From Bilabrum cf. latius (taxonomy: Eukaryota), in contig OZ237756.1 of assembly GCA_965178125.1 (NCBI GenBank), positions 558,001-622,000 on the forward strand: a stretch of 64,000 bases of DNA, read 5' to 3'. Each line of letters begins with the position of its first letter. Position 1 is the first letter of the stretch. This document shows positions 3,597 through 64,000 of the stretch, piece by piece. The notes under the pieces are model-generated. The model was given only the letters and a program-made list of their open reading frames with translations. It was not told where the DNA came from and made no database searches. A program made the position numbers and the translations under genes.

Positions 3597-5048
3597 TCAT
3601 GTGCCCGGTCCGGGTCCGGATGCTGCCCCTGCCCCAGCCGCAGCCCCTGCCCCAGCACTCCCCCCCATGTGCCCGAAATCAGGCCGTTTCCTGTGCATGG
3701 CATCCCCGAGCACACGCTCCAGGTCCACCTGCTCGCTTGCATTCGAGCTCTCGTCCGCACTCGTCACACCGCCACTGCCCCCACCCCGGGGAGGCCCCCC
3801 CGTGGCGCTAGAGGCGGGGGGAGACGGCCCCGAAGGCCCCGCCATGCTGGGGTACAGGTCTGATTCACCGCGGATCAGGTCGATCATGTACTCCTCTTCT
3901 TCGGAAGCCCACACGGGAGACCCGTCCCTTCCGGCTCCGGGTCCTGCGGGCAGCAGCACCAGCACGTCCTTCGGCTTGAGACGCCTGGGCACGGGGCCGT
4001 ACCTGCCTGGCTCGGGGGCTTTGGACGACGATCCGGAGCCGGAATCCTTCGATGAAGTGTCATCACCAGCACCCGCACCCGGCGCTGACGCCGGCGCCGC
4101 GGATTCGGAGCCGAATTCGGCCTCGTCCCAATCGTCTGCTGCCAGCCATGCAGAGGAGGACCCAGAACCTCCTCCTCCCCCTTCCTCTCCTTCTCCTTCT
4201 TCCCCGCCGCCGTAATCTAGGTCTAAGATGGCGTCGTATGTTCCCTGGGAAAGCGTCCCGCTCCCCTCGATTTCTCTCTTCATCAATTCGATAAAGTCGG
4301 CAGGCTCCTTGCCCTGCTTCTGCAGCTGAGATCCCCTCCACCTGGCGTGCTGTACGTCGGCTAGATACTAACCGTACTTGTTTCCAAATATGTTGTAGTA
4401 TCCACCGCTGCCAGATGCGCACCCCAAGCACCCGCAGTGCACGTCGACGACGATTTTATCGGGCGGGAGCTCGTGCTTGGGCACCCGGCAGATGCTTGAT
4501 GTCCCGAAATTGTAGTTGCGCGGGTTGATCACGTATGTTGAGCATAGCTTTTCGTATCCTGGTTTCTTCCACTTCGCAATGAGGCCCCCGTCGGCGATTT
4601 TCTCACGGATGCACCACTCGTAAAGGGCTCGGCTGATTTTCTCGTACGTGTAGTACATGTCGTAGATGTATCGCCTGCGATGGTATGGAGGATGCAGCGC
4701 ACCGATTCGAGGCATTCACGATGTGTTATTAAACCTACAATGAACCTCTTGACAGAGTTTTCAAACTCACGATCGCTGCCAGTTGATTTGCTGCACAGGC
4801 CACAGGGCCTCCACCCTTCGCTTGCCCTCGTGAGGCTCTGATGTCGCTGCGAGCCGAAAAAACAGTCCATGTGTTTATATTCAATACTACGATTTGACTC
4901 AATACTAGTATGCAACTCACAGCGAGAAAAAACGAAGAGAGATGGCAACGAGTGTGAACTTACCTTCTCGCATTTCTGCATCAAGGGCCAAGATGACCTC
5001 TTCGATTTCCCCAAAGCCTGCAGGCGCTCGTTTATACCGGTGCGCCAT
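3597..5048 (-). CDS. BUD31: BUD31/G10 splicing factor with acidic C-terminal extension; exons 5048-4964, 4846-4771, 4674-3597
   Basis: Spliced translation MAHRYKRAPAGF...EPHEGKRRVEALWP...RYIYDMYY...LIAKWKKPGYEKLC...ICRVPK...HCGCLGCASG, with canonical GT-AG introns. In-frame TAG at 4368-4370 (NKYG*YLA); stop TGA at 3597-3599. Confidence 0.9.
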
Positions 5049-5372
5049 CTGAAATAAATAATTCGTGCTTTGTTTGCCCTGCTATGCGAATTGCAAGTCC
5101 TCACAAACAGCCACGTTCGCTGAAGAACGTTCGAATCACCGTGATTCCTCGAGGCGGCCCTAAAGTCCCATATTTGGTGATCCAAATCACCATGGCGGTT
5201 CGATTTGCCGGCAGAGTATTCTTGCATGTAAGCTTTCACTGCCTTGCTCTTCCCATATGAACATGGCTGTACGCAGCAATGCACCATTGCAGTTGACTGT
5301 CGCAAGATATCCATCATTCTAGCTTCTTTGCACAACTTGCAGGCTGCTTTCGGCAGTGGTCTTGGGGCAATC

Positions 5373-8300
5373 ATGACCGCCATGAACGTTGGCGTCCATG
5401 GAGCGGCGCTCGGACCTGAAGGTATGAAACGGCTGGCGCTGCGGGACAACGACCCGTCCGTATTGCATCAAGAGGCCGGCGACACCAAGCATGCGGGGCC
5501 AGGCGTCGACACAGATACCAAGAAAATAATTGGATACATGAAGACCATCGCGCGAATCACCAATTCCCCCGAGGAGCAGGACACGATGATCGCTCGAATG
5601 CTCATCGCGTACCAGCACGGCTACCTGGTCGATGCGGCCACCACCGGCGTGATCTGCTCGGTGTGGTATCCCATGATGGACCGACTTGCGAGGTTAATCA
5701 CTGGGGCAACCAAGGGAAAGACGCTGCTCGATGTGGCGCGTGGAGCGGCGGGCGCTGGGGCCCGGGCCTCCCCTGCCCTGGCCGCCGCCGCACTCGTCGC
5801 ATGCATCGCGGCCGAAGGCTCCACTCTGGCGGTGCAGAAGATCGCGGAGGACCTGATGGGCGATCAGCTGGAATCCGAGGAGAACCTCGTCTCGATCGCC
5901 GGGATGGCGCTGTTCGGCACGTGGCAGCCGACCTCGGACGAAGGTTCCTTCAGGGTACAAGACATGCCGGCGGCACTGTCGCGGTGGATCGAGGGCAGCA
6001 GCCCGCGACTGCAGGCGATTCGGGCGTCTTCAGAGAGCTATTGGAGCTGGGTGGCTGCTGGGCTGCCCGTGGCTGCACTAGTGTACGGGGTTGTGCCTCC
6101 CCACCTGAGGCCTCTGTTCGGGCTGACTCAGTACGCCATGGTGCACCTGTGGAGGGAGGTGTAGTGCAATGCATTCGTGCTGAATCGGATCAGGAGGGAG
6201 GCGGAGGAGCAGGGGCTGGGTCCGGAGGACATGCTGCCGAGCGTGAGCCTGCACAGCGAGCAGCTGCTCAGGGCGCTATGGTCCGTGTGTTCCCTGCCCA
6301 TCGACGAAGATGAAGAAAAGCAACTGCTCCGTGATACCGGTCGCAACGGCCGGGGAAGACTGGCTCGCGCCTCGGGCGACTACCCCGAGTGCACGAGGTA
6401 CCGGCTGCCTGCCGCCACCGCCCCGAGCCGTGGAGGCACGGGACTCCAAACCGGAACTGCAGCCGGCCGGCCGGTTTCACCACCCCCGTCCTCCTTTACC
6501 TCTTCGACTGGGTTGCGACCGCTTCTGGGTTCCGCCGAGGCTGACGATCAGGCCATCGGGGAGGTGCTTCGGCTGGACGCGCGGCCGCTCGCCTACTACA
6601 GGCCAGAGGCAGCCGCGCACGACCTGCTTAACGGCTCCGAATCCGGGATCGTCACCATGGAGGACCTCGAGCAGGTCGGCAAGGGGTAGGACGACGACGA
6701 TTCGGAGCCGAATACGGACCGGGACTAGCCGCACGATCCGGAGTCGGAAACCGACCCCGGCGATGCCCATGGCACCACGTGGGGCTCCCACGAACATCCC
6801 ATCGCTGACCCGGCGGCGGCCTTTGGCGTATTCGAAGCGAGGATGGCGCAGGTGTCTCGAAAACTCAGAAAACAGGCTGAGGAGCAGGCGGCCAGGGAAC
6901 AACGGGCCAGCTGGGCAAAGCGGCGGAAGCGGAGGGCCAAGGTCATGCTCGAGGGAAACTCGAGGGGAGCAAGCAACGATTCCGATTCCGAGTCGGATAC
7001 CGGCATGGGTGGCCCCGCACATGCTGAGCGGAACCTTCGTCGGCTCGTTGTTCCCCCGATCGGCTGGTACCGCCCGAGCGACCACTCGGGGCCCCACAAC
7101 CCCGACCCTCTTCTGGCACCCGAATGGGTCCTGCCCGGCGTAGACGGCTGGCTGCACACTGAGGGGCGCGGCGCCGGTTCCGCAGCGGTGGCCCTGGAGT
7201 TAGCTCGAGAGAACACACTGGAGGTGGGTTACGGAACCTACGCCGCCGCTATTCTCCGAGCCAAGATCGCTGCATTTGCGGCACTTGCCCTGCTGCAAGG
7301 CAGTGGCAATGGGAATGGCGATGTCGATGGCGGTGACGATGGCAATGGCGATGACGAGACGAGTGGCGGTCGCAGCGGCGGAGAGATGGGACGGGGAGGG
7401 AACACGAGCGACGAGGACGGCATGTCGGCTGGCGCGAAAGGGCTCGACGACGAGTGCCGGCGCCGCGCATTGCGGAACCTCATCGCCGGTCTGCAGCTGG
7501 CACTCGCGGCCGCCTCCATGGCGGCTCAGCAGGAGGAGGGGGAGGGCCCTTACCTGTCGGGGAAACCAATGGAAGCGGGCGGGGGCATGTTCAGCTACGG
7601 GCCGCTGCATGGTCCCGTGAAGCAGATCAGGCAGGTGATGGCAAAGCGAGCGGCCAACGAGTAGGAGGCCGAGAAGGAGAGGAAACGGGAATTTGGCCCG
7701 CACTCGTCACACTCCGGCGTCCCGCTCCGAGGCCGCACAGTGCCCGGCTTGGGCTTCTTCGCGGGAATGCTCGATTTCCTGGTGCGGGAAGGTGTGACGA
7801 GTGGGGACATTCCCCGGAGCTGGGTGGATTCCAACCAACTGCTGTGGGGGGGATTAGCCGGTGCAGAAATTGGTCGTGGAAGCAGCCGGGAGCAAATCAG
7901 GGAACAAGGCAATGGCGATGCCGGGGGCCACGAAGACAGGGTGGGTCGGCTTGCTCGGTTGTTGCGCGCCAAAGGCATGCCCCCCGAGATGGCCAATGCG
8001 ACCGCGAGACGGGTCTTGCAGGGCGCGGTGAATCGAAGGCGAGCCGAATTGGCGCTGGCCCAGACACAGGGTAAGGGATAGGGATAGGGAGATGGATATG
8101 GAGATGGACAGGGATAGGGAGATGGACAGGGATAGAGATAGGGATAGGGATAGGGATAGGGAAAGGGAAAGGGACGAGGGCAAACAGAAGTTATGATCGA
8201 TGCGGCAAAGGAAGAGGAGGATGAGCTGGCCAGGATTGCAGCCGTGGAGGACACCCAGGCAGCCGCAAACGCCGTGAACTTCATCGCGAACGCACTCGTC

Positions 8301-10505
8301 ACACAGGCGATGGAGCTGGGGGAAGCCGCCGCCATTCTCGAAGATGAGGCCACGTGCACGGCGGTGCACATGAACTCCCGTTCCGGCGCCGCGCAAACGG
8401 AACCGGCTGCTGCGTTCCTGCGCGCCGTCGCAGCAGGGCGGATCGGGAGCGGAAACGCATCGACCACTCCATCTTCATCTGCATCTTCGTCCCAAGATTC
8501 TAATTTGGGCAAGCGAGGTATTTCCCGCGATGAAGCCGACCTGCGGGCTGGTGAGTGCATCGCATTGCAGTGCCTCTCCCGGTTTCCCTCCCAGGCGCAC
8601 GCGGCCCTGGACGGTATCCCCGCAGAGGAACAACTGGCCGCGGGAGAGGGCCCGGTTCCGCACTCGCAGCCGTGCGCGGCGCCGCCAAAGTACCTGAAGG
8701 AGATGGTCGTGGCGTCACCAGAGGGCATGCGTCTGCACGCGGGTAAGTTGCGTGCGTTTTTGGAGCACGCCGCCGCGATGGAGGACGCTGCCGCTGGGAC
8801 GGGAGAAGTGGCCTCTGCTGGACTGAGGGCCTGCGGGCGGGTTCGATCCCGGGAGTGGGGGATGAACACCCTCGTGGACCGGATGTCAAGTTCCGCAATC
8901 GGCGCGGCGCCGCTGCTGCACTGGGCGAACCGGGTGCGAGGGGCGCTCTCCCTCCGCGAGTCTGAGTGCGACCACGAGCGCACCACACCCGGTCGCAAGC
9001 AGGCTGATCCGATCCTCGAGGACCCGGATCGTGCGGACGAGGCGGCGGCGGGCTGGCGCGAGAGGCACGGGGCTAGTCTCCAAACCCCCGGGGGTCACTC
9101 TTTCCACGCCGTGGTGTCCACGGTGGCGCGCGGCGCCGCTTTGCGGAACCGGATGCTGCCTCTGGACTGGTCCTGGATCGTGACGAGCGACCCCACGGGC
9201 AAGCAGACCTGGGTGGATCTGCCTGCCAGCAACCCCGTCACTGAGCTCAAGCGGGAGACTTTGTCCCAGCTAGGAGTGAGCCGGGCCCCACTGGCGCCTG
9301 ATGATGTCGCCGCGCAGCAGCCGCCGGCCGGCAGCGGAACCAGCGGAACCATAGCGATGATGCGCGGCGCCGTTCGTAGCCCAGGGGAACAATCGGCGGC
9401 CGGACTCGGAATGGGAATTCGTGGCAGCACCACAAGGGATGGAGAAGGCCGGACGGCTGCAGACGACGGCTCCGGGGTCCGAACCCCGGACGAGCCATCC
9501 GCCGTGGACGCTGTGCGGGGGTTGGACGCCCAAGACAACGAATCGGAGCAAGACGACACCCATGCCAGGGAACAAGCCAGGGAGCAAATGGAGAGCGAGG
9601 AGCAGCAGGCCCAGGAATTCATGGCTCAGGTGATGGCACGGGCACTTTCCGGAGATCTAGACACGGATCAGGATCATGATCGGGATTAGGGAGACCCAAA
9701 GCAGTCGCAGCAGCAAAGGCGGGCTCTCCGTCGGCCCGGATTGGCCCCCGCGGCAGACCCCGCGCAAATCGCTGCAAACCAACTCGGCCTGATGCACATG
9801 CTCTCGCTAGCAATTAAGCAGTCGTCCAAAGAGCAGGGCGCGCACTCCACCGGGGCTTTCCTGAACCCCACGGTGCAGCGCATTGCGGCGCGTAAGGGAC
9901 TTCTACCCTCGGGTCTGATGCCGCTCGCGGCCATGTGCCACGGGGGGTACTACCAAGTCATAGGGAACAAATCAGATCCAGGGAACAATTCAGATCCAGG
10001 GAACAATGGAGGGTACCCTGCTCGAGGCCTGAGTCCCTTGGACGGCGCGATCGGGGGCGGGGTGAGGCGAGCCAGGGACCGACGCGCAGGTGTGACGAGT
10101 GAGGACGGGGAAGGTGGCGTTGAGGATCTGCCGGAGAGCCCGCAGGACTGGCTGCTAGGAAGTAGTGAGGACCGCGCGGCGGCAGAAGCGGCCATGCATA
10201 CCATCTTGCTGGCGTGGTAGGAGTGCTACTGGGGGGATCCGTTGGGGGCGCATGCCGTGGCGCGGCGGTGGGGGAAGGAGAGGGCGGGGCAGGGTGGCTT
10301 CCTGACCGTGGTCAGGGAACACGTAGGTGGTGGTGGTGGTGGGGGTAGTGGTGGTCCAAGTGGCGGTCATTCGGAGCCGGTGCTGCCGCACCCCGACAAG
10401 GGGACAGACGAGGAGGAGGAGGCGCTGGGAGGTCAAGAGGACGAGGACGTGGACACGATCGGGGGTGTGCTGGGGTACATGCCGACGGATGAGGGCAGAC
10501 AATAA
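5373..10505 (+). CDS. Very large host hypothetical protein (~1710 aa under TAG=Gln)
   Basis: Seven listed ORFs (5244, 6177, 6843, 7740, 8193, 9741, 10242) share one frame and are separated only by TAG. The first TAA is at 10503-10505. Start codon uncertain. Confidence 0.7.
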
Positions 10506-10698
10506 ATATATATGGATTCGTCTTGTATTGTATCCCTCCATGCCTTTTGGGTTGGCCGTTGCAGCGCATTTGGACTGCATTGAGCAAGTCTTGTTTTCAT
10601 AGGTGCACGCTACCATCCGTTGGGGCCGCGCCGACGATCAGGCGATCAGTGGCTCACTGCCGGATTTCTGGAGGTCTAGACCAGAATTCCAGCCAACC

Positions 10699-13600
10699 AT
10701 GACTATGTATGAATCAGATGAACCGTGCATCCGGACCACGTACCGGATTGGGTACTGGGCTGGCACGCTGATGAACGTTGCAGCCATTATCTGGGCACTG
10801 GTAGCGGGGTACCTTTGCTACGGCTCCTCTTGGACCCCCTGGGCCATCATGGCGCTAGCAATTGCTTAGTTAATTGTGCAGCAGTACGGAGATTGGGCCA
10901 TGAACCGGGATAGGTACAACCATACGTACGCTTTCCTCGTGATGCAGTTCTTTTCGCTTGTGGTCCTCGTCACCCTTGGCGCTTCTGCCATCATTGACAT
11001 CCCGAAGGTAAGCCTTGCAACATTGATTGTGTATGGTTTGATTGGCATCTAGGCTGCTGAGAGTGCGTTTCGACGAACCCAGCATGGCCATCGGAGACAA
11101 ATCTTTGGTTTGCGGGGAATCCTTGGCATCGTTTGCCGGTGCATTATACCTGTCAAGGAGTGCATGGAATGGGTTCCAAGATAGTTTGTATCACGCACAG
11201 CTCGAAAGCTTCTTCCGTGCCGCACTTTACAACATCTGCGCAGGCGAAGGAGTACCTGGACGACCACTGGATTTTCCTGCAGGTCAAGGTGATTCCGTTC
11301 ACAACCCTGATCGACGCAAAGCGGGAAACGGAACAGCTCCTTAGAAGCCTGGGAATCATGATTTTCTTCACTGAGGTGCCTGCATTCGTCCTGTTCCACC
11401 GCGCGTGGATGCATTTGGACGGGTTTGCGGGGCTCGCCAAGGGCCAGTTCACGCTGCTGCTCCCCCAAATCGCGGCGATATTTGTATTCGCTGCCACGGC
11501 CGCTTCGCTGTCCATCGCTGGCGTAGAGGTATCCACGTTTGCCACTCCAGTGCACGCGCCGACGCTCGTTGCGGTGTCTGTGCTGTCTTTCCTCGTTGTG
11601 CTCGCCTGCTTTGCCGCGATGATCGGGGCTCTGTTCTGGGGATCCCACCACAGCGCCAACGTGCTGGCGCTGATAATCGTGGCACCGCCAAGCATTTTCG
11701 CTCTGATCGCGGGAATCACGCTCATCGCCAGGGCGGGATAGGTGGAGGACTTTGTCACGCCGCGCTGGGACGACATCAAGAACTTCGTTCCGATCGATTA
11801 CCAGTCCCTCCCTGCTTCCACGTACGTCCTCGACAGCGCAACCCTCATGAAGCAGGCGGGACTTGCCGCGCTCGTGCAGGGCCTGCTGGGCGTCGTGTTT
11901 CTCGTGATCGAGATTCCAGCCATCCAGTGGCAGATCCAGCACACGCTGGGTAGGACCCCAGGCGCCGTGACGGTTGCAACCAACCGGAGGCTGCTGCAGC
12001 AGTACGGCCGCGGGAAAGCGCGCGGCGCCGGTGACGCGGGGGCCCTGGGTTCCGCTGACGGCGTGGTGCCGGGCCAGCAGGGCACGTCCACCGGTGGAGT
12101 GGGCAGCGGCGGCGATGGCGGCGAAGGGAAGGCCGACAGCGACGGCTCGGGTTCCGGCTCCGGATCCGATCGCAGGGGTTCGGAGGCGGTTCCGGGTCAG
12201 GGTGTCCAGCTGGTCAAGAGCTCCACTGGGGGCATCGGTTCCGCAGGGAACGGCGCCGCGGCGCCCTCGGCAGGCACGAACTTGCTGGACGATGACGGGG
12301 CCTCGTAGGGAGGCAACGACGAGGATGAGATCGGGGGACAGGGGGATTCGATGGAGAGCTACTACTCCACCGGTGGATCCAAGGCGGGGAGGGGCGGGGG
12401 CGGCGGCGGGGGAGGGTATGGCTCCTCTGCGGGGGCCGGCGGGATCGGATCAAGCTCTGCACTCGTCAGCGACGACGCGATCGACACGCACCCATCGATG
12501 CGTGTGAGCAGGCCTGCGCCGAAACGGATCATCGATGGGTCCATGACGCCGCTCTTGGAGTGCTTCAGGCCCGCCCTGGCAGACACGTTCCTGACGGTAA
12601 TAGAGTACTGGGCCTGCACTGCCACGGTGGCCGCACTCGTCATCATCGGGCTGGTGCTCATGTCCGTTGGGGTTGCCGTCGTGGAGCGGCAGGCACGGTG
12701 TGACCTGCTGGTGGCCGACGGGGTGCCCATGTCCGTGCACAACTTCACGTTCCCCACGCAGTTCCAGTCGCTGCTCACGTTCAAAAACCACTTCCCGAGG
12801 GGCCAGCTGATTGTGGAGCAGGTGCTCACGGATGAGAGTCCGTACGGGGGAGGCAACTTCGGGGTGCAGGTGCGGCAGTGGTCCGACGACTCCTCCCGGT
12901 TGTTCTCCAGGGAACAATTGCAGGACATGGTCAAGTACGAGGTGCTGATCGCCGACGATGACCCGTTCATGTTCGAGGAGGAGGAGGAGAGCAAATCGAC
13001 CAACGGCCCACCGGGCAGGCGGACGGCCCTGCGCCCTGTGTACAACGCCAACTTGACCGGCGTGTTCCCACCCGTGACCTCAGACAACAGCGAGGGGCTG
13101 AAGAGATGCGACGTGCTCGAGGTCAAGCTGGTGGTTCCCCTGATCAAGAACCCCTTCATCCTGAGCAAAATGAGAAGGGCCAGGGAACAATCGGCCGGGG
13201 AACAAGGAGGCGTCGAGGCGGGGTCGCCGGGCAGGAGGGTGCTGTCCGAGGCGGAGGCAGAGGCGCTTCTGGAGGAGGACCCCGCCACGTGGGGGGAATT
13301 CCCCCAGGGGTCCAGTAGCGGGGTCACCCCCGTGCTGGGGGAACATCAGGCGAGGGAGCTGTGGGCCGTCGCTCGGACCGGCGGGCCGGGGCGAGCGCCC
13401 ACCGCCACGAGTGCCCGCAAGCTGTCCGAGTCCAGGCTGGGGCACCCGGGACCGAACCCCGCTGCGCTGGCGCGGGCCCAGGCCGAGTCGCACGGGTTTC
13501 TATCGCTGGCGGCGCGCGCCATCTCGGGTCTGTTCCTCGGGAGTGAAGGTCCTTCCGAGGTTGCAACCGGCATGCAGGGCAGGCGCATGAGCGCGCAGGA

Positions 13601-14843
13601 GGTGCAGAGCCACGTGGGCCTGGGCGGCCGCGCCTGGGTGGGTGGCACGAGACCTGGCGACGGGGGCTTCTGGCTGGGCGACGGTCGCACTCGTCACACC
13701 TGGGAAGAGGACCCGACCCAGCCGCTGAGTGAGAGCCGAAAGACGCGCGCGTCGCGGCGCGCGCTGCTGAACCGACTCGGAGCCGACGGTGCCATCGAGT
13801 GCTATTACGTCCTGGAGTCGACGCATGCCTTCGTCGACGTGCGGGGAATGTTCTCCACGAACCTTCCCGGCTTCGAGATCCTGAATGTGACGACTAAGGA
13901 CGGCGGGATCCGGGCCTCCGAGATTATGGGGGCGGTGGAGGTGGACGACTACGAGGGCGAAACCACGATGAACGTTCGCTCGGAAACGGGTCGGATCTCG
14001 ATCCAGCGGGCGGTGCTACCCGGCATCGTCGTGAAGAGTGGGGGCCCTGTCAGCTGTTCCTCGTGCATTTCCGGTTCCGTGGATGCGACCAACACCGATG
14101 CTGCGCTGCCTGCGACCATCATGGGACACGTGCTTGTGGAGGGGACGGGCGACGGGGAGCGGGTCGTGGTTTCCCGCGCCCTCGCCGGCTTCAACATCGA
14201 GGTGAAGTCGGCTGGAGACCTTATCGTATCCAACAGCGCGGCTGGCCCTGCCCTGGGGCTGTCCTTGTCGTCGAGGGGCGACATGGTGCTTTCCAGCCTG
14301 CTCATGGCATCGGGAAATCAGACCGACCTGGACGTGCGGGGAAATAGTTTCTCCGCATCCGCCGTGTTCTCCAACCGCATCAAGCTCCACGCCGACAGCG
14401 CGAGCCTATCCATCGCTGAGGCCTTCATCGGCGTGGCCACCCCCACCGGCGAGCTGGCCGACAGCTTCAAGCCTAAGATCACGCCTACTGCGGGATTCAA
14501 CTACTCCTTGCCGGCCGTGGATCTCAAGACGAACAAGGGCAAGCTGAGTCTCATCGGACTGGGGGCAGCACCCGCTGACGCGGACCTGCACTTCGACGCC
14601 AACATGCAGGTGGACTTGGAGACGAACAAGGGGGCGCTCAAGGTGGAGGTGAACGGAGGGGGGTACACGGGAAATTACACGTGCTCCAGCTCGGGCCGCA
14701 TTACCGTTGAGATTGAGGAACAGGCTGCCCCCAGCAGTGGGGTCATCGGGGACCCCCCGAATGTCCCCACGGTGGGGCGGCTGAGGTTAGAGAGCACAAA
14801 GGGGGGGGCCATCGACCTCGCTGTGCTTGACCCCTCCTTCTGA
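10699..14843 (+). CDS. Large membrane protein: N-terminal multi-pass region plus C-terminal beta-rich adhesin-like region; join(10699..11007,11244..14843)
   Basis: Several hydrophobic helices. A phase-0 intron GTAAGC(11008)..CAG(11243) joins IPK|AKEYL. ORFs 11133, 11742 and 12351 are co-framed and separated by TAG; stop TGA at 14841-14843. Repetitive beta-strand motifs such as DLKTNKGKL and DLETNKGAL. Confidence 0.65.
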
Positions 14844-17855: not shown

Positions 17856-17858
17856 TGA

Positions 17859-44859: not shown

Positions 44860-44898
44860 CGTATAATTATATTATGATAATAGATAATATTATTAAAT

Positions 44899-51387: not shown

Positions 51388-51581
51388 TGTGTTTGGACCG
51401 TGCTGGGGTCGCCTTCGAGGTCATTAGGCGATTCGGCAGATGGAAGTCGGCATCTGCATGCGAGGTGTACTTGCGGGGCGTCAGGGAAGGCTTGCCTCCT
51501 CTGGAGCTCGGCGGCAGGAGCCTCGATTTGAACAGGCCAGTGTGGGTGCTGGCCAGCGCGCTGCGGCTGAACTTGGAGTGA
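50523..51581 (+). CDS. Ngaro tyrosine recombinase, overlapping the polyprotein in another frame; start unresolved
   Basis: LRLGEL, HKAD, GHSIRIAA, GRWKS...Y (R-K-HxxR-W-Y set). Four TAGs; TGA stop. Confidence 0.88.
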
Positions 51582-53571: not shown

Positions 53572-53716
53572 AATTCTATATATTTATATGATATTTTAAT
53601 CATATTCTTAAGACTGTGCACTCTAAAATGAATATTTGAAATGGCTACTTCTCACAATATACCTTTTGAACCCACTAATTATTAGAAAAATAATAAATAT
53701 TAACATATAGTATATA

Positions 53717-54784
53717 ATGTCATTATCATACGATGAAATACCAAATAGTCATTTAGTTGCTTTAAGAGAATACAAGCACAAGAAGAGGAACAAAAGCGTC
53801 TTTTTTAGTGAAGATGTAGGGGAAAAAGTCATAACTCCAGAAGATATAAGTGATGATTTACTTGAAGAGTATTATGGAAAGAGAGCAATTAAATATGAGA
53901 AGAATAAAAAAGCATTACGTGAAGAGATGTGTAAGCTAGTGAATGGAAATAAAAAACTAGTTAGAAAGACTAACGAGTTAAGAATAGATGATAAGAGTTA
54001 GTTTGAAATAGTCCCATTCTTTGATGATGAGACCAAAAGACAAATACACTATTTAAGTGGTTAGGCTGGTGCTGGTAAGTCTTATATTGCTAAGTCTTTA
54101 CTCAAGTATTATCATATGTTCATTCCAAAGAAGAGGGTTTTAGTCATTACACCAGTACAGGAAACAAATCCAACTTATTTAAAATATGGTAATTTTATTG
54201 ATATTGATAAATTAGTAGCAGTAGATAGAAACGATAGTTATGATGACTTAATGAGGAAATACAAAGAAGAAAAGATATTCTTTAGGTAGGAAAAGAAGTC
54301 ATTAGAACCTCATGAATTAATTAAAAGAGAGATAGAGATAGAAAGAATGAAACCAACAAGTAAAGACAAGACAAAGGCATCATTTACCACTACTCCATTG
54401 TATGAAGAATGGGCAAAATAGGGTCCTTCTGTGGTGGTATTTGATGATTATGAAGCCTTAAACGGTGATAAAAAGTAGAGAGCGTTATTCTTAATTAAGC
54501 GTATAGGTGAAGTTGGAAGACATAGCTCAACAAATATGATAGTTATAAGTCATTTAACGAATGATTATGCGAATACTAGGTCAATAGTCATGGAAAGTCA
54601 TAATATTATTTTATTTAAGAGAAATCTATGGAAATTTAGCAAATATTTAATGAAAGCATATTTAGGATTTGATGCAAGTCTTATAAATCGTGTTTATAAA
54701 TTGTTTGGAGAAGGTAATAGATGGCTATGTATTAATAAGACTTATAATTTTATCACTTGTCCTAAATAGATGTTCGTATATTAA
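53717..54784 (+). CDS. FtsK-HerA/A32-like DNA packaging ATPase (355 aa)
   Basis: Walker A SG*AGAGKS, Walker B VVVFDD, GRH...IVISH, TRSIVMESH. Confidence 0.92.
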
Positions 54785-54803
54785 TTTTCTTAGTATTAAG
54801 TAT

Positions 54804-55352
54804 ATGGATATAACCACTGCATTAAGTCCTGAAGAGGTACAAAGACTATACTTTACATTTACAAAGTAGCATATACCAGTTATAATGTATGAAGAAATAA
54901 GTGATACTAATAACATCAGACAATTTCTAGATGAAAATCCTTTATTTGTCCTTTATTATCCTAACTTAGTAGAAGGAGCAACAATGAGCGGTCATTATAC
55001 TGCGGTCATATTTAACAAATCAAAGAATACTCTTTATTTTTGGGATAGTTATGGTCAATTACCTGATACTCATATTCCAGTTGTAGGTGGAGTCATAGAC
55101 CCATAGAAGCTATATGATAGAAGTAGTCTTCTAATAGATCACGTATTAGATGCTGGTATTAATGTTGACTATTCAAATCAAAAGAATCAATTAATATCAA
55201 ATAACTCTGCCACATGCGGGAGGTGGTGTGTGCTCAGGATATTATTCCATCACTTGACGAATGATTAGTTTAATAGTCAATTAAAGAAGGCTTTTAAAAA
55301 GTATGGAGGAGGACTAGATAATGATGAACTTATTACTTTGATAATTAGTTAA
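54804..55352 (+). CDS. Virophage maturation cysteine protease (adenain/Ulp1-like, 182 aa)
   Basis: GHYTAV, YFWDSYG and Q...ATCGRWC supply the catalytic H-D-Q-C residues. Confidence 0.92.
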
Positions 55353-55709
55353 TATGACATATACCATAAATTTTTAGATATTGAAAATTGATATCTATAA
55401 GGTGGCCAAATTAAAAAGACTAAAATATAAAAATGAATACGGGTAAGCGCCCAGAATTGCGGAAATATATCTTAATATCCTAATATATTATCGCAATTTG
55501 GGGCGCTGGTATTATACTATATCTTAAGATACTAAATTTTTAAAATTTCGGAATATTGGATTTTTTCAATGAGTCAAATAATTAATAAAAACTTTTTTAA
55601 AAAGTCAATACGGGTACGCGCCCAGAATTGCGGAAATATATCTTAAATAGCTATAATATTACCGCAATTTGGGGCATTAGACAAGACTTTTCTTGATAAA
55701 TGTTATAGA

Positions 55710-56636
55710 ATGGTAGAGATTCAAGAACCAGATATCTTTTATATTAACTCATAGGATACTATAACATCTATTAATACTAATAGACCAGTATCAATACATG
55801 AACAGCGTCAAGGTAATATCTTGACAAATTCACAAAACTACTTATTATCACTTGACCGATGGACTCTTAAATGTCGTATTCCTTTATTTGTAGCAAGTAA
55901 AGAAGTAAAGAATAGCGATAATTAGTCAATTTATAAGATGTCGTTTGTGAAGAAGAGTGATGGAACTACTTACACTCGTAATATTGTCTTAACTAAGCCG
56001 TTATATTATAGTCTTAAGACCCTATCTAATGAATTTAATAATACTCTTAGTGATTTATGTGGAGATGCTAGTATTCCAACTGATAGTATAGTATTTGAAT
56101 ATCACGGTAAGACTAAAACATTTAGTTTCACCCGTTTAGCCGCTTTTACAAGTGCGTGGACTTTAAGTTTTAACTTTCCTTTATTCTCTATCTTTGAGAC
56201 ATTTGAATATGACGATGAAGGTAAAGACATCAAGAGTGATACTTATATAAATCTATTAGATGGATATAATGAATAGAGTGCTTCTACCTTAGATTAGTTT
56301 CCTACTATGGAGTATATTCAAATTATTAGTCCATCACTTCCAATACTTCCAGAATTTACGCCATCATATAAAAGTACATCTAGTACAGAGATACAAAGTG
56401 AAAATATCTTAAGTGATTTCAAGATAGACAATACAACAGGAACGAGTTTTATTAAAATAAACTTTAGTAGTGGAGGAAATCATAGATGGCAATAGTTCTA
56501 TAGATCAGCATTTAATAGTTATAGTATAGTACCGTATTTTAGAGATACTTTTGGAAACTTATACGAAATACCCTTTACTTTTGGACAAGGACTTAATATA
56601 AAAGCTCTATTTAAAAGTAAAAAGTTAATAACTTAA
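55710..56636 (+). CDS. Minor capsid (penton) protein (308 aa)
   Basis: Located between protease and MCP. N-terminal IFY...R...IL.N...Y..S..R...IPLF pattern; beta-rich; several TAGs. Confidence 0.78.
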
Positions 56637-56678
56637 AGTAAAAAATAAATAAATATCTTTAGTCTTAATATATTTATA

Positions 56679-58565
56679 ATGTCTGATATGGATAATGTAC
56701 CTGTAGCAGCACAAAGCAAAGTCGTAGATGACGTCTCAGAACTACCAGTAACTCAAATAGCTGACGAAAAACTCAACTTTGTGGGTGATAGTCAAGCTAT
56801 TACTCTAGGAACTACCCTTGGATACTCTTCCAAGTTTCAAAATCACTACGAACCAGATGGTGGTAACTCTAGCGCAACTAATGCATTTAGAAGTAATTAT
56901 ACTTTCGTAGTGCCATCAAATCAAGGAATGACTGACAGTAATCCCCGTCTAAGAGTTTCATTTGACGTATACATCTATGATAGTTAGAACAATGGAGCAG
57001 TAGCTCAAACTGATATCGTCAATAAGGTAGCCCCTTCTACATTTATGGTAAATTCAATGATCACAAGTTCCACAGTTAAAATGGGAGACTTATCTCGTAG
57101 TTCATCACCTTATCAATTAGTCAATTTAATAGCTAGAAGTCTTGACCGTGCCACTCTAGCACAAATAAGTCCTGTCTTTTAGGCTGATAACACTTGGGAA
57201 TTTAATACTGCCGCAAATGGTCTTGCTAAGTCTGTCCTTCAATGGGGTGTAAATGATGATAGTATTATGGAAGCTCGCGGTCCTGGTAAGAATTACCGCG
57301 CAACACTTGAAAAAGTGGATGCTAATACTCCAATACCTAATAATAATGTAACACCAACTCAAGACTATGTCAAATTACATATTGAAATCTCTGAAGCACT
57401 TCTTGCACGTCCTTTCCAATATATGATGGGTGGTAATGCTAGACCTTTTGTTGATCATCCACAATGAAATGTTAATTTACAAATGAGAAATAACTTAATT
57501 GATAAGATGTTTAATACTTCAAGTGATTGGAATGGAGACTATGCTTTTGCTTTATCCGATTGCTAGATCCATTTTGATGTCTTTACTTATAATACTCATC
57601 TTAACTTCTTGAAGAAAGTACCTAAACAAATATTCTACAACTCTGTTGACTTTGAACTACATGAAGAGCCTAAACTTGATAATCCTATCACTACTAAAGG
57701 TGTCCATACTTTTAATAATTATCAACTTTAGACTTGCCCTTCTTGGTTTGCTGTGTGCTTAGTTGATTCTCAATATGGAGAAGCTAGTGGTACACCTCAT
57801 AGAACACTTGCCATTAACAATATTAAAGTACAACTTAGGTCTTAGGGTTCTATTTTAGGAGAACTTACACAAGACGATATCTTTAGACTTAGTGAAAGAA
57901 ATGGATCAAATAGTGAGTATGCTTCTTTTACTAACTTAGATGTAACTGTAGGAGGTGCTTCTAAAGTATACGGATCTAATGGCTGGCTCTTATTTAGACT
58001 TAGTGATTTAAATACTCCTGAAACTATTCAAAGCAACAGTGCTGACCCTATTAGTATTCGTGTTCAAGTAGCCAATGACGAACCCCCAACCGCTGCTATG
58101 TCTCAAGGATATAAAGCTCAATTATTCTGTGCCTATGACAAGATTATCGTGAATACTAGAGGTGCCGCTATTGAATGGCGTGAAGATAGTGCTTCTGTTG
58201 ACCCTGAGAAAGTGGCTAAACCTTCTAATTATACATTTTCTAATATGAACTACTCTAAGAACGTATTAGGTGGAAGACGTCGTAAAGTGATGCAATTCTT
58301 TAAGAGAGCCTTTAACAAAGCTAAAGACTTAGGACGTAAAGTGGTAGACTTTGGAAAGAAAGCTAAAGCTAAATTTGATAAAGTGAAACCAGCTCTTCGT
58401 AAAGCAAGACAAGCAGTAAGTGAATACTTACCCGATGAAGTGAATGACTTAGCTGAACGTGTTGGAGCAGGTCTTTTAACTAGTGGTGGAAGTCTTTTGA
58501 CCAGTGGAGGTAAGAAATTAACTAAGGCTCAACTTATGAAACTTAGAAAGTAGCTCAATATGTGA
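56679..58565 (+). CDS. Major capsid protein (629 codons) with one internal TGA at 57465-57467
   Basis: Long beta-rich frame after the penton gene. C-terminal LGG|RRRK basic tail with repeated TSGG, as in processed virophage MCPs. Confidence 0.82.
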
Positions 58566-58752
58566 GTCGTAAATTATTAATTAATATTTAAAAGTTATAA
58601 ATATTGACTAAATTTAAAAACTCAATACGGGTACGCGCCCAGAATTGCGAAAATATATCTTGAATAGCTATAATATTACCGCAATTTCGGGCGTTCATAT
58701 CTTAAGACTAGTTTAAATATTACGCCATTAAATATCCACTATATATATAGTT

Positions 58753-59175
58753 ATGGCAGCAGTATCACCGTGTGAAGACTTACTTTATATGGAGTATTCA
58801 TTCTTATTCTTACCACATAGAGAAGACCCAACACTTAAATCTCAAAAGGTTTACTTAGATGATGAACTTGAAGGAGATCCTGAAGACATTGTAATAGATA
58901 AAGATTAGATACAAGTAAATAATAGAGGTCATATAAAGACATATGTAAGTGAAGGAGGCTTTACAAAGTTAAAGGTAGGATAGATAATTGAAGAGATGGA
59001 GCAAGAGGTGCGTAATTAGAATGGTATTCATTATGATTGTATTTTTTATCATAAAGTTGAACACGACACGAGCACAGATATTTATAAAGTAGTATGGGGG
59101 TGGTATCCAGCAGACTTTCCAACAAATGGATGCGACCCTGCTATCTTGTATAAGAAACCCCCTAATATGGATTAA
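58753..59175 (+). CDS. Hypothetical protein (140 aa), single-gene unit between hairpin repeats
   Basis: Promoter motif, four TAGs, TAA stop. Confidence 0.65.
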
Positions 59176-59286
59176 TTATTAAAAACTCAATACGGGTACG
59201 CGCCCAGAATTGCGGAAATATATCTTAAATAGCTATAATATTACCGCAATTTCGGGCGGTCATATCTTAAGACTAGTTTATTACTT

Positions 59287-59317
59287 TCGCCAAAAAATAT
59301 CCACTATATATATAGTA
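59287..59317 (+). promoter_or_regulatory. Representative copy of the conserved viral promoter-like motif
   Basis: CGCCAWWW-N5-8-YCYACTATATATATAG lies immediately before the ATG here and at 38093, 58753, 60255 and 41612(-), with partial copies before 37773 and 40679. Confidence 0.75.
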
Positions 59318-59707
59318 ATGTCAGATAAAGTAGATTTAAAAATATCGTTTTCTCAAAGTCTTGTATCAAGTGTAAACCTTGATTGGGATGGAATAGGTAA
59401 GATGTTATGTGGAAAAATCACAAGTAAGATAGAAGGAAATGAGATAGTGTTAAGACAAATAGGTCAACCGACTCCAAAAGATGGAATGATGGAGTTCTCA
59501 TACACGACCGACTATAAAGCAAATCAAGTTTTTGAATTACTTAAAGACTTAACTGATGAAAGACAAGACGCGATTATGGGATACGTTCATTGTAAGTTAA
59601 GTGATAGCAACAGGAAAAGAAGACCATTAACTGAAGAAGATCACAGACAAATGATTCTGGATGCTATGGATAGGAGTGTTAAAGAATATAAAAAACATAT
59701 GTCATAA
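59318..59707 (+). CDS. Hypothetical protein (129 aa)
   Basis: ATG directly after the promoter motif; TAA stop. Confidence 0.7.
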   Translation: MSDKVDLKISFSQSLVSSVNLDWDGIGKMLCGKITSKIEGNEIVLRQIGQPTPKDGMMEFSYTTDYKANQVFELLKDLTDERQDAIMGYVHCKLSDSNRKRRPLTEEDHRQMILDAMDRSVKEYKKHMS

Positions 59708-59769
59708 TTAAGTCTTAATAATAAAGTCTTAATATTAAAGTTATTAATATTAAGTCATATCTATGTAAT

Positions 59770-60085
59770 AAAAAAAAATTTCTTTGAGCTAGTAATTATA
59801 CCGATGGTTTGACTACTTGGCGAAGTCATTCGTAAGTCATTGTTGTAGCGGAGATGCGAATGTCAACCATGGACCGCTATCCCTATTAAGTCTTACGACT
59901 AAGTCTGCTACAACCACTTACGACTACTTCTACAGTATCCAAACTCCCTTCAAAGACTTGCAAGACGTGTGCTTTGTCATGAAAATGACTTACAGAACGA
60001 CTCACGGCGATGTCAGTGGTGGGAATCGAACCCACGACCTTGACTTTGTGAAACAATCACGATATCACTAGACCAAGACCACAAC
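59770..60085 (-). ncRNA. Candidate tRNA-headed, Pol III-type structured RNA
   Basis: A-box TGGTCTAGTG (60075-60066), B-box and T-arm GTGGG-TTCGATT-CCCAC, downstream long stems, and a T9 terminator at 59778-59770. Confidence 0.5.
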
Positions 60086-60254
60086 GCACCAAGAGGTTAA
60101 AAAAAAAATATTCAAATAAATTTTAAAATTCAATACGCCTAAACGCCCAGAATTGCAGAAATATATCTTAAATAGCTATAATATTACCGCAATTTCGGGC
60201 GGTCATATCCTAAGTTTGATTATTCCGCCAAAAATATCTACTATATATATAGTA

Positions 60255-62096
60255 ATGTCAGATAATTTAGACTTCCATTTAATTAAACAAGTTGATGATA
60301 TATGTTTCACTGGTGTTGAATTCTATTAGGGATATCGAATAACTCAAGGTGAACAGCTTAAACAACTTAATTACTTATTCGTAGATAACAAAAAGGATAT
60401 TGATAAGTTTGTATCTATTTCATTTGTAAAAGAAGCAGATAAGGATGAGTTTGAGCTATTACTGGTTAATGAAAATGGAAAATTAGAAGACGACACAGAT
60501 ATATTAATGCTAACGCCGAATGGGGTTCGGGGTTGATGTGGCGATGCGTTCGAGACTCGAACACAGGCTCCGGTCTACCAACGCGAGGTTGCAACCGCCA
60601 GTGCGACCAGCAGCTTGCGAGGCATTCCCTCGTCTCCTTCCTTAGGGAAGGGGGCGGGGCAGCGCGGCAGTGGCCGTTCCGGCTCATGCCGTTGTTTTGT
60701 TTAGTATTTATGTTCGGTTTGGTGCTCACACGGGTAGTGCTTAACGCCGTGTCAACTATCGCGCGTGTCCATGTGGGTCCGTTCGGCCTACATCGTGCAT
60801 CCATCCTCGGCCTACTTGGCGCTCCAGTGGATCCGAACCAATATTTACTTCGATGTGATCCATCTTTCTCGGCACATCGATGGGACTTCGGTCCGTTGGG
60901 CTCGGCTGCTGCTTGCGCCACGGTCTCCCGGGTGTGTGCTCGCCGATGGCATTTTCGCGCGATCTCTGCGTCCCTCCCTTTCGTACTTGTTCCTACGCAC
61001 GGCCATGCATGTAGAAACATATTCAAATGGTTCGATCTTACGGTTTTCCGACGACCCAGCCTTTCCGTTGGCGAGGCGCGCTCCGCTTTTCCGGTCGCAC
61101 CTCGAAAGCAACCACTTTCGGCCAGATCAGCCATCGTACCAGGATACAGCACGATTTGCACCTATCGAGTGACTGATCATTTGAATTGTGCAGGGTGGGC
61201 ACGTAGTCAGCTTGGACTCCATCGTCCTCTGGCTGCCGACGACAGCAGGCTCGGTGAGCCTTCGTCATCGTCCAGACAACCCTGCAGCTCGCACCAGGCG
61301 TGCGTGCAGGAGGTCGAAGCGAGCAGCGCGGTGTGGCGCAGCTCGTAGACGGAGGCCGGCCTGGAGCCTGGTCGGTTGACGCAGCATCAGTGGTGGGCTG
61401 GTGCTGTGTCTTGCGCGGGTGCCGGAGCTTGGCCACGGTGGCCTGCTGCTCCCTGCGCCCCACGCGCAGTTCCTCCCGCTCCGGCGGATGAGTCAGCAGT
61501 GGCACGTTGCCACCGGCTGACGACGACAGCAGGCTCGGTGAGCCTTCGTCATCGTCCAGAAAACCCTGCAGCTCGCACCAGGCGTGCGTGCAGGAGGTCG
61601 AAGCGAGCAGCGCGGTGTGGCGCAGCTCGTAGACGGAGGCCGGCCTGGAGCCTGGTCGGTTGACGCAGCATCAGTGGTGGGCTGGTGCTGTGTCTTTGCG
61701 CGGGTGCCGGAGCTTGGCCACGATGGCCTGCTGCTCCCTGCGCCCCACGCGCAGTTCCTCCCGCTCCGGCGGATGAGTCAGCAGTGGCACGTTGCCACCG
61801 GCTGACGACGACAGCAGGCTCGGTGAGCCTTCGTCATCGTCCAGAAAACCCTGCAGCTCGCACCAGGCGTGCGTGCAGGAGGTCGAAACATCATTAAAAC
61901 AGAGAGAGACCTTATTAAGTACTTGAAAGAAATAGATTTAAACAAAAAAGACTATTCAAATGATGATGTTATGTTGTCAACATTTCCAATTATAATGATG
62001 AGCATACGAGATCTAGTAATCAATAGCAATATTGGTTCAATTGAGAGTATCAAAAAAGGTGATACAGATCAATTTGACCACTTGAAAGATAACTAA
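60255..62096 (+). pseudogene. Hypothetical viral gene (150 aa) interrupted by a GC-rich insert; join(60255..60503,61893..62096)
   Basis: Removing the insert gives in-frame ...EDDTDI|IKTERDLIKY... Confidence 0.7.
60504..61892 (+). mobile_element. Non-autonomous Ngaro-related element with ~2.3 internal 284-bp tandem repeats (61238-61888)
   Basis: Starts TTAATGCTAACGCCGAATGGGGTTCGG, compared with ATGATCCTAACGCCGGATGGGGTTCGG in the Ngaro A repeat. Ends in CATC like Ngaro B2. No RT or YR. Confidence 0.78.
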
Positions 62097-62241
62097 ATAA
62101 ATTCAATACACGTACGCGCCCAGAATTGCGGAAATATATCTTAAATAGCTATAATATTACCGCAATTTCGGGCGGTCGTATCTTAAAAGATTTTAATACA
62201 TACGATATCACTTATTAAGTTTTTTATTAATAAGTCATAAT

Positions 62242-64000
62242 TTAATTTTGTTGTTCTAGTGGATCATTATCCTCATCAACAAATAAAGCGGGGTCTAAGT
62301 CAACCTCTATCTCTTCATCGGGTAATTGAACCTCTTCATCATCAACAAATATATCTACTTCACGAGTCTTTTTCTTGTTAGACCAGATATATTCCATCTC
62401 ATCGATAATATCCTAGTTAAATTCTACATCGTAATTAATTTTCTTTTTCTTACAAGTCATAAATATGTCTTTCCCAAACATTGATTTATATACTTTAAGT
62501 ATTTCGTAATAAAGACCTTTATCAGTGGATAAGTCAACTTTACTTCTTCTTTGGCAGTCATACACTGTCCTATATTCATCTGTTAAGTCTTGGTCTAATA
62601 CTTTCTTTTTGATATTATAATCAAGATTAGTTCTTTTAAGACCTAAAGTATCAATCATCTTATTAAGTAAGACTAATTTTCTAGAACTAGACTTAGCATT
62701 GATAATATCAAACTCGCCTTTATTAATTGCTTTCACAAGTAAGTGTTTATCATCTTGTCTAAAGAATTTATTGAAATTAAATAAATTAGATAACTTACCT
62801 TTATTAATAAAGTACTCTTTGTATTTGTCAATATCACCTTCATCTAAGTCTAAATATTTATTAATCTTCTTGACATTAAGACAATTAATATCAAAATTTT
62901 CAAGTTGTTTTTCTTTAATGGTATCTTTGATTTCTTTATCCTTACATCTGGTGATCTTAACAGATAAATCATAAGACACGTCATAACCGGTATCAATTAA
63001 CTACTTGATCATATGTAATTTAGGGTTTGTCTTATAACAATCTACCTTGTAAAGATAATTACGATATAGTTTCTTGAATATGATTTTAACTTTGCTCATT
63101 TCTTCTTCTACTTTGTCTTCTACTTCTACCTCGTTGAAGTCGGGATATGTATCACTGACAAATTTAACTAATTCTTCGTAGTCTTTTAAAGAGGTAGCCA
63201 TAAAAGATTTAACTTGTGAAAGACTTTCATATGTGCTAGATCGTCCTTTCTAGTAATCAAAAAATATAGTGATATGTGATGGGTTTCTACATCTGTTAAG
63301 CTATTGAACCATTTGGGGAGGTGTGATAGTATGACCTTTGAAATAACCAAAGACTGGTCTAGTCATAGTGCTATCTATCCCGTAAATGACTTTAGGTGAG
63401 AAGATAATGATATCAAACATATCCATATCATAGTCTTTGTCTTCGCTTTCTGCTGTAAGTATTAAGATTTTATTTAATTTCTTATCTTTCTCGTTATCTA
63501 TAATTTTAAGACTAATTAACTCATTGATTATATCAGCTTTTGTCTTACTATCACTAGCAAGCATAAATTTCTTGTGTTTCATTAACTCATCTCTAAAAGT
63601 CTGTTCGTCATTAACAAATACAGTTTTGGTGCCCTTGAACCTGTTTCTGTCATTCCTAATATATTGATAATCTAATTTTAATAATTCTAAGAAATATAGA
63701 GCATCTTGAGATAAGTCAGCATCTGCTACTATGAACTACTTACAAGTGGTAAGAGCACGAATAAGAGTAATGAAACTCATTGGTCGCCTACCATATAAAG
63801 TCGTAGAACTTAAACAGTGTTCTAAGATACTATTAAACTCATCTAAAAAGACAATATAATCCTTAAAGTTATAATTGCTAAGACTAACAATACTTTCAGG
63901 AGTAATAACAATACTATCACCCTATTTGTATTTATGGTCTTGATAGAATTTAGTTGATTTTGGAAGACTACGCATCTATTGCTTACCTAATAAAATACGA
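62242..64000 (-). CDS. SF2 helicase of the herpesvirus UL9/origin-binding-protein type, 3' part
   Basis: ITPESI, VFLDEFNSILEH...S.T, IVADADL, IFSPKVIYGIDS, QMVQ*LNRCR. One frame via TAGs; TAA at 62242-62244. Confidence 0.8.

Follow-up and report, generated by a model that had tools for sequence, protein, structure and literature searches.

The 64,000-nucleotide window analyzed in this study (contig OZ237756.1, positions 558,001 to 622,000; assembly GCA_965178125.1, Bilabrum cf. latius) joins host DNA to a mavirus-like virophage, which is itself broken by a Ngaro-type retrotransposon. We consider it highly probable (roughly 0.85) that the window belongs to the nuclear genome of a protist that reads UAG as glutamine (Gln) and keeps UAA and UGA as stops, and that the virophage and the Ngaro element share this code, which we take to correspond to NCBI table 15. 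Under this reading, cytoplasmic translation would decode UAG as Gln and would terminate at UAA and UGA only, and the virophage and the Ngaro element would carry the host code since the same ribosomes translate them. The underlying machinery would presumably comprise a tRNA-Gln(CUA) and an eRF1 no longer recognizing UAG, by analogy with other UAG=Gln eukaryotes (PMC5304391).

The left part of the window (1-34950, ∼61% GC), which holds spliced genes, minisatellites, and one tRNA-Leu(CAA), and in which Pfam searches recognized BUD31, Ribosomal_S16, PhyH, and a zinc-knuckle/ankyrin protein besides several proteins without a family, is eukaryotic nuclear DNA. At the boundary between host and virophage, the GC content falls from 0.58 to 0.31 between 34800 and 35200. 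Three segments (∼34950-45422, 52088-60506, and 62000-64000) have 29 to 32% GC, and the GC profile returns to ∼60% at 45423-52087 and ∼60507-62000. Judged from its genes, the low-GC part is an integrated mavirus-like virophage, the right end of which lies beyond the window.

With TAG read as sense, 94 in-frame TAG codons were found in 23 open reading frames (ORFs; 11,997 codons). Since these ORFs were defined in this way, they necessarily lack in-frame TAA and TGA, and the evidence lies in their length. ORFs of at least 200 amino acids (aa) increased from 50 under translation table 11 to 72, and the frames gained included those of 1753 aa (5244-10505, 14 TAG), 1919 aa (45628-51387, 11 TAG), 551 aa (38093-39748, 12 TAG), and 585 aa (62242-63999, 7 TAG). 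The off-frames of the 15 virophage ORFs (63 in-frame TAG in 4510 codons, 30% GC) contained 517 TAA and 349 TGA in 9020 codons (866; 9.6% per codon), and those of the host ORFs contained 207 TAA plus TGA in 11,136 codons (1.9%); at such rates, chance would not leave frames of 551 and 1754 codons open. Moreover, stop-to-stop frames of at least 150 aa in the low-GC part took in 1503 residues under the standard code; treating TAG as sense brought this number to 5320, compared with 2067 for TGA and 3776 for TAA, the commonest triplet there. A first-pass annotation of this DNA had claimed that host, virophage, and retrotransposon alike use TAG as a sense codon, and this is borne out by long frames and, in the host, also by coding signal and spliced transcripts. 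Its description of nearly every long gene as split by TAG agrees with the counts except for two TAG-free ORFs among the 23 (40679-41185 and 19598-23221), and its placing of the recoding from position 4368 onward has to be moved upstream, where TAG-bearing ORFs also lie (1185-2060, 3 TAG; TAG at 3499-3501).

TAG and the stop codons in host genes

A host gene on the forward strand (5343-10505), which has an intron upstream (5228-5342) and ends at TAA, carries 14 in-frame TAGs, eight of which lie in an in-frame microsatellite, (GGATAG)n, at 8074-8174 on the same strand. Its frame extends over 1754 codons without TAA or TGA, while the off-frames hold 59 TGA and 8 TAA, and the GC content at second codon positions was below that at first and third positions in 27 of the 29 60-codon windows (exceptions at codons 361 and 661). 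To follow coding signal past TAG, a codon-usage score trained on TAG-free host coding stretches was used. Directly after host TAGs, the score was positive in the gene frame in nine of nine stretches, one of which overlaps the training data (+0.10 to +0.33), including four of four TAGs tested in the 5343-10505 gene, and it was negative or near zero in the other frames. The score was negative in all four introns.

Transcript evidence, which was compared over the host stretch 2000-15000, came from assembled contigs of the runs X5, X6, and X7. Joints at 4673/4770, 4846/4964, and 11005/11242 were present in contigs of all three, and a joint at 5227/5343 was present in X5; all four are GT..AG on the strand of the gene, and none occurs in the DNA run X1. 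On account of these joints, the X5-X7 contigs are read as spliced transcripts. Ten host TAGs (3499, 4368, 6162, 6687, 6726, 7662, 9687, 10218, 11739, and 12306) were kept in the contigs, with no other letter at any of them and no joint across them. For instance, one X5 contig extends from the exon boundary at 5343 as far as 10244, matching the window over 5343-8060 and 8185-10244 with no differences and no joints. The gene at 2197-3522 was likewise covered at 2167-3542 (X5) and 2164-3570 (X6) with no other letters. Because the contigs match the window across them, host TAGs are neither spliced out nor visibly edited, and the check for editing or splicing of TAG, which covers host genes, came out in favor of TAG being retained in mature mRNA. 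Taken with the 14-TAG frame and the coding signal, these spliced transcripts show that TAG is a sense codon in host genes.

TAA and TGA, by contrast with TAG, close frames, and both still terminate. All 22 ORF ends within the window are at TAA (11) or TGA (11), and the coding score was negative in seven of seven host stretches after a terminal TAA or TGA. Product lengths fit these ends: the penton has 308 aa compared with 307 aa in the mavirus penton chain, and the virophage integrase has 551 aa compared with 554 and 548 aa in relatives. The claim of the first-pass annotation that TAA and TGA remain stops therefore stands, with a single in-frame TGA at 57465-57467 (forward strand) in the virophage capsid gene, where the mavirus capsid alignment crosses and places the TGA opposite Phe. 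As five virophage ORFs end at TGA, this codon is not taken as a second reassignment; a nonsense mutation in this copy or a fault of its assembly is the preferred reading. Programmed read-through was also listed as a possible reading of it.

Several observations in host genes pull the other way. The label of X5-X7 as RNA is a guess (X5 had even been marked "probably DNA"), and it is the joints that speak for RNA; such contigs cannot exclude low-level editing; and the letter-by-letter comparison covers the RNA contig on either side of 8061-8184, the segment with the eight microsatellite TAGs, which the contig spans at equal length (124 letters). In addition, none of the host TAGs falls within a domain recognized by Pfam, and Gln is seen directly in no host gene. 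Four genes are of particular concern. In the gene at 2197-3522 (forward strand, without Pfam family), TAG 3499-3501 sits seven codons before TGA. The last exon of BUD31 (3597-4673, reverse strand; Pfam BUD31, 125.6 bits; introns at 4674-4769 and 4847-4963), the ribosomal protein S16 gene (23456-24328, reverse strand; 72.3 bits), and a PhyH-family dioxygenase gene (34021-34830, reverse strand; 51.6 bits) each have a sole TAG past the conserved domain, at 4368-4370 (15 codons past the end of the Pfam domain), 23855-23857, and 34231-34233, respectively. A TAG acting as a stop would look alike in all four, and the tail of S16 is of low complexity, with the weakest coding score (+0.134 in frame).

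These genes give its footing to the alternative that survives best, although we regard it as unlikely, namely, that UAG has a dual meaning: Gln within genes and context-dependent termination near their 3′ ends, as has been described in some ciliates and, for UAA, in Blastocrithidia. The coding score, however, remained positive after the TAGs of BUD31 (+0.217 per codon in frame, compared with −0.174 and −0.292 off frame), S16, and PhyH (+0.231 in frame), whereas it was negative after every TAA or TGA tested. In BUD31, another 256 codons follow the TAG before the frame closes at TGA, a stretch in which the off-frames hold five and four TAA/TGA, and none of the 22 ORF ends needs TAG as a stop. 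With TAG as sense, BUD31 acquires (3597-4367, reverse strand) an acidic, Gly/Ser-rich C-terminal extension of ∼256 aa that is absent from the Pfam model, and such an extension is unusual for a small, conserved splicing factor.

The virophage and its retrotransposon

The virophage is represented by a left part (34950-45422, ∼31% GC), a middle part (52088-60506, forward strand) with ATPase, protease-like, penton, and major capsid genes, and the segment beyond 62000. In the left part, an integrase gene with an rve core and a chromodomain (38093-39748, forward strand; rve 32.8 bits, cut-off 32.6; Chromo 30.3 bits, cut-off 25.1) carries 12 TAGs and ends at TAA. The middle part encodes a predicted ATPase (53717-54784, forward strand), in which a Walker A motif is visible and AAA_10 and AAA_22 score 25.2 and 25.9 bits, below their cut-offs; a penton (55710-56636, forward strand), which matches the PDB structures of mavirus (6g41, E 1.9e-12) and Sputnik (3j26_N, E 4.5e-5); and a major capsid protein (MCP; 56679-58565, forward strand), which matches mavirus 6g45 (E 1.2e-14) and the Pfam family MCP_V20_C (31.7 bits, cut-off 27). 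A helicase-like ORF on the reverse strand (62242-63999, TAA stop included), with seven TAGs, runs off the window end and matched no Pfam family at an E value of at most 0.01. The alignments of the capsid and penton to mavirus and that of the integrase run across TAGs. The four TAGs quoted by the first-pass annotation are in place, at integrase aa 308 (39014, P-TAG-SNGAVER) and aa 187 (38651, WLNN-TAG), at ATPase aa 116 (54062, G-TAG-AGAGKS), and in the helicase-like ORF (QMVQ-TAG-LNRCR).

Codon choice differs strongly between the components of the window. The TAG/CAA/CAG counts were 63/107/6 in the virophage, 20/43/143 in the host ORFs, and 11/24/72 in the main Ngaro frame, so that TAG makes up 36%, 10%, and 11/107 of the Gln codons, respectively; among virophage genes, its share was 12/22 in the integrase, 6/8 in the ATPase, and 6/30 in the capsid. 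Over the virophage segments counted (35251-45500, 52251-60500, and 62001-64000), CAG has nearly been given up for TAG and CAA. TAG in place of CAG is what would be expected in an AT-rich virophage if C-to-T changes at CAG are synonymous, which points to long evolution under the code. Likewise, with 36% TAG, some of it at Gln positions conserved family-wide, the virophage would have evolved long under this code, and no expression of its genes would be possible in a standard-code cell.

The Ngaro-type tyrosine-recombinase retrotransposon (DIRS order; 45423-52087, forward strand; 6.7 kb, ∼60% GC) lies within the virophage and is delimited by the repeats A1 (45423-45599), B1 (51622-51755), A2 (51751-51927), and B2 (51954-52087). 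A1 and A2 (177 bp) are 100% identical, B1 and B2 (134 bp) are 99.3% identical, and the order A1-ORFs-B1-A2-B2 is the layout of split direct repeats that characterizes Ngaro elements. A long frame (45628-51387, forward strand) comprising a gag-like part, a putative reverse transcriptase (RT), and RNase H carries 11 TAGs, and its tail overlaps a predicted tyrosine recombinase frame (50586-51581, forward strand) with four TAGs. In the former, 1919 codons are open, while the off-frames hold 55 TGA and 6 TAA. RNase H was recognized by RVT_3 (24.3 to 29.0 bits, cut-off 21.6), the match of the RT to RVT_1 was weak (E 0.25) with an FVDD motif visible in the translation, and the recombinase matched Phage_integrase (E 5.8e-5; 23.4 bits, cut-off 27.1) with the R...HxxR...Y residues visible. 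Among proteins 0.55 to 1.75 times the query length, no homologue of the RT-RNase H region was found. Because the A repeats are identical, the insertion would be recent, and the 15 TAGs of so young a copy are not decay, given that fifteen nonsense changes, every one of them TAG, are not credible. That TAG is a sense codon in the Ngaro element follows from its 1919-codon frame with 11 TAGs.

The fourfold higher share of TAG among Gln codons in the virophage than in the host ORFs might suggest that the recoding is viral only, with a standard-code host in which TAG would be read by means of a suppressor tRNA from a giant virus or from the element itself. Code-15 phages proceed in this manner (PMC10879173), and in-frame TAG is described as decoded as Gln in bacteriophages of this code, crAss-like and others (PMC9523058). 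Nevertheless, this explanation is very improbable. Intron-bearing host genes keep in-frame TAG in mRNA, with frames and coding signal passing through it, and the GC-rich Ngaro element has a host-like TAG share. Furthermore, tRNA and Rfam scans of the window returned tRNA-Leu(CAA) alone and none in the virophage. Unlike code-15 phages, which leave the host code by means of their own suppressor tRNA, the virophage shares its code with the host genes and was found to contain no suppressor tRNA, and a virus-supplied suppressor is therefore unlikely.

Relatives of the virophage were sparse. Searches of IMG/VR with the integrase and with the ATPase gave no relatives, and a tblastn search with the ATPase against a phage collection gave no match. 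Against JGI metagenomes, the integrase matched three distant loci (29 to 34% identity), and a smaller alignment search added four IMG/VR loci. When 16 virophage proteins of the window were compared with these seven loci by tblastn, the integrase alone matched, and none of the 15 others did. Three closer integrases were also seen: a 551-aa protein, 99% identical, from another contig of 48.6 kb (P0001), and proteins with 80% and 77% identity from two short contigs (P0002 and P0003).

The amino acid at TAG

The residue encoded by TAG was examined chiefly in the integrase. A HMMER search of 1.84 billion representatives gave 150 listed matches, and 149 homologues, 29 to 42% identical, were aligned with X at the 12 TAG positions, nine of which formed columns with at least 30 sequences. 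Gln was the commonest residue in three of these nine well-filled columns (86%, 59%, and 65%), including the P-Q-S-N-G position beside the catalytic Glu, compared with 7 of the 427 other non-Gln columns and 2 of the 8 CAA/CAG columns. The mean share of Gln was 0.295 in TAG columns, 0.232 in CAA/CAG columns, and 0.038 in the remaining ones. When sets of nine columns were drawn at random 100,000 times, the observed value was never attained. The log-odds summed over the TAG columns were +11.0 for Q and negative for all other residues (R −3.3, K −5.2, N −5.7, S −6.4, and E −7.2). The TAG columns thus act like the ordinary Gln columns of the integrase. When nine residues were substituted in turn for TAG and the Pfam matches rescored, Q was best in both tests above threshold, although by small margins (MCP_V20_C, Q 31.7, K 31.1, and N 31.0; Ngaro RVT_3, Q 29.0 and E/K/R 28.2). 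On the evidence of these alignments, the virophage alone gives a direct demonstration of TAG=Gln, through its integrase, while for the host and the Ngaro element we infer it from the shared translation machinery. The assignment to Gln made by the first-pass annotation accordingly holds from direct comparison in the virophage and by extension elsewhere.

Some of the residue data do not favor Gln. Six of the nine well-filled columns are topped by L, P, K, S, E, and N, and three sparse ones (25 to 27 sequences) show N, Y, and K; these are variable positions, as are most CAA/CAG columns. Pairwise alignments to the mavirus capsid proteins have Gln at one of eight TAG positions (D, K, N, and D in the MCP and R, Q, F, and N in the penton), but single alignments of this kind are uninformative on the TAG residue. 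In the Ngaro RNase H, a subthreshold RT_RNaseH match favors W (21.9) and Y (21.6) over Q (19.6). The integrases P0001 to P0003 show Q at most TAG positions, but they were possibly called with TAG read as Q; since the gene caller evidently read TAG as sense there, this is not independent evidence.

That TAG is sense but stands for another residue (Glu, Lys, Tyr, Leu, or Ser), at least in host genes, is accordingly a reading to which we give very little weight, comparable to that of a purely viral recoding. It draws on the fact that the residue evidence does not come from host genes, and UAG=Leu, Ser, and Glu codes do exist, according to passages of PMC11687900. The in-frame microsatellite of the 5343-10505 gene, which the first-pass annotation had called a Gly-Gln repeat, does mix TAG (eight times) with CAG (twice), but GAT (three times), AAG (three times), and TAT (once) occur at the same second-codon position. 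It shows that in-frame TAG is tolerated, without pointing to Gln in particular, and it was dropped as evidence for Gln on account of these variants. Set against a different residue are the log-odds of the integrase, the preference for Q in both above-threshold Pfam tests, and the fact that one cytoplasm decodes host, virophage, and Ngaro genes. Least probable of all is a standard code with the TAGs as true stops in decayed pseudogenes or as assembly or editing artifacts, for although the capsid gene carries a real in-frame TGA, so that the virophage copy is imperfect, and false stops are known in endogenous virophage assemblies (parts of PMC8547959 and PMC10120064), the interruptions comprise 94 TAG, 1 TGA, and 0 TAA even in DNA of 30% GC, independent DNA and RNA contigs match the window at host TAGs with 0 differences, the integrase TAG columns match Gln, and the Ngaro A repeats are identical.

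Known recoded systems and further features of the window

The first-pass annotation had called UAG-only reassignment to Gln rare and had named Iotanema. A nuclear code with UAG=Gln and UAA/UGA as stops is indeed described for the fornicate Iotanema spirale (PMC5304391), but passages of PMC11687900 also assign it to Protocruzia tuzeti and two phyllopharyngean ciliate lineages, and they list other UAG-only reassignments in a rhizarian (Leu) and in Scotinosphaera (Ser). The present case resembles those of Iotanema, Protocruzia, and the phyllopharyngeans in that the sole change is that of UAG to Gln, with termination kept at UAA and UGA; it differs from them in resting on one 64-kb window and not on a transcriptome-wide analysis. 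Because the DNA is GC-rich (61%) and has short GT-AG introns, it is not a ciliate macronucleus. The resemblance to a heterotrophic stramenopile that the first-pass annotation proposed for the host is a conjecture. The code itself is already known, and the window would represent an additional UAG=Gln lineage that is probably independent.

Concerning the viral side, the first-pass annotation knew of no described recoded virophage-host-Ngaro system, and the literature searches turned up no recoded virophage in print. Recoded endogenous viruses as such are nevertheless on record: the endogenous viral elements of Streblomastix strix use the UAA/UAG=Gln table of their host (Bellas et al. 2023, PMC10120064), and passages of that paper take this code sharing as a sign of long association. 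As in Streblomastix, the genes of an integrated virus here follow the nonstandard code of the cell that harbors them. In that oxymonad, however, the genes in question are capsid genes of polinton-like viruses and both UAR codons are reassigned, whereas the present element is mavirus-like, with UAG alone reassigned and with TAG outnumbering CAG by 63 to 6. The architecture is like that of the endogenous mavirus-like elements (EMALEs) of Cafeteria burkhardae, which carry Ngaro insertions (Hackl et al. 2021, PMC8547959): a virophage of low GC content, equipped with an rve integrase, lies in a GC-rich flagellate genome and is broken by a GC-rich Ngaro element. Unlike the present virophage, the Cafeteria EMALEs are taken as standard-code, given that "genetic code," "TAG," and "amber" are absent from the main text of PMC8547959, and the capsid described here is only distantly related to that of mavirus (E 1.2e-14). 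Elsewhere, the presence of an ochre-suppressor tRNA in a virophage had been interpreted as hinting at recoded hosts (passages of PMC6905037), and a 2026 catalogue reports that alternative codes improve the annotation of some giant virus genomes from metagenomes, while every confirmed giant virus isolate was obtained from a host with the standard code (passages of PMC13524828). The literature consulted contained neither a recoded virophage nor a flagellate that reads UAG as Gln and shares these features, although the supplements of PMC10120064, PMC8547959, and PMC12220804 may list more recoded hosts.

Whether the window represents an undescribed non-ciliate protist with a UAG=Gln code, together with the first virophage known to depend on a nonstandard code, is in our estimation an evenly balanced question. 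If true, it would be the first host-anchored system of giant virus, virophage, and retrotransposon on an alternative code, the giant virus being included because a virophage is expressed inside a giant-virus-infected cell. A TAG=Gln giant virus would then be predicted for this host, and the idea of a code change as a barrier to virus host range would become testable. The virophage, and by implication its giant virus, would be tied to hosts that read TAG as Gln, and a culturable or sequenced recoded host would make the giant-virus code question testable. Few nuclear genomes reassign UAG while leaving UAA as it was, and each such case bears on how release-factor specificity and suppressor tRNAs can evolve separately for the two codons. 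A virophage with a third of its Gln codons as TAG and an apparently active Ngaro element inside it shows that mobile elements track a change in the host code. There is also a practical consequence, as standard-code annotation shatters such genes. The 14-TAG host protein (5343-10502) had no homologue in a collection of 5.8 billion proteins among those 0.55 to 1.75 times its length.

Of the remaining genes, the main exon of a membrane/adhesin-like host gene (11242-14843, forward strand) follows an intron at 11006-11241, carries TAGs at 11739-11741 and 12306-12308, and ends at TGA. In the virophage, a protease-like ORF (54804-55352, forward strand) had a Peptidase_C57 score of 16.3 bits (cut-off 24.5) and no match in PDB. 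The second GC-rich insert (60507-62000), which cuts a virophage ORF (60255-60536), resembles the start of the Ngaro A repeat over 32 bp (90.6%) and contains an internal tandem duplication of ∼285 bp (61231-61602 compared with 61515-61887, 98.9%). It has no recognizable protein domain and may be a non-autonomous or remnant retroelement.

In the host part, the gene at 2197-3522 and BUD31 converge on a short segment (3623-3658) that is also present on several other X1 DNA contigs and is probably a dispersed repeat. Transcript contigs end there, and the 3′ ends of the mRNAs of both genes are thus unreadable. The GC-rich DNA also harbors minisatellites with a 40-bp unit (17218-17855, 16 copies, and 18465-19392, 23 copies), a 42-bp unit (25005-25392, 9 copies), and a 64-bp unit (28887-32119, 46 copies), and these arrays create long spurious ORFs in several frames. 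At 31826-32119, a further 4.6 units of 64 bp have a different consensus and apparently the opposite orientation. On either side of the 40-bp arrays lie near-identical N-terminal copies of the zinc-knuckle gene (15905-16876 and 19598-20500), the longer copy of which (19598-23221) encodes 1207 aa with zero TAG.

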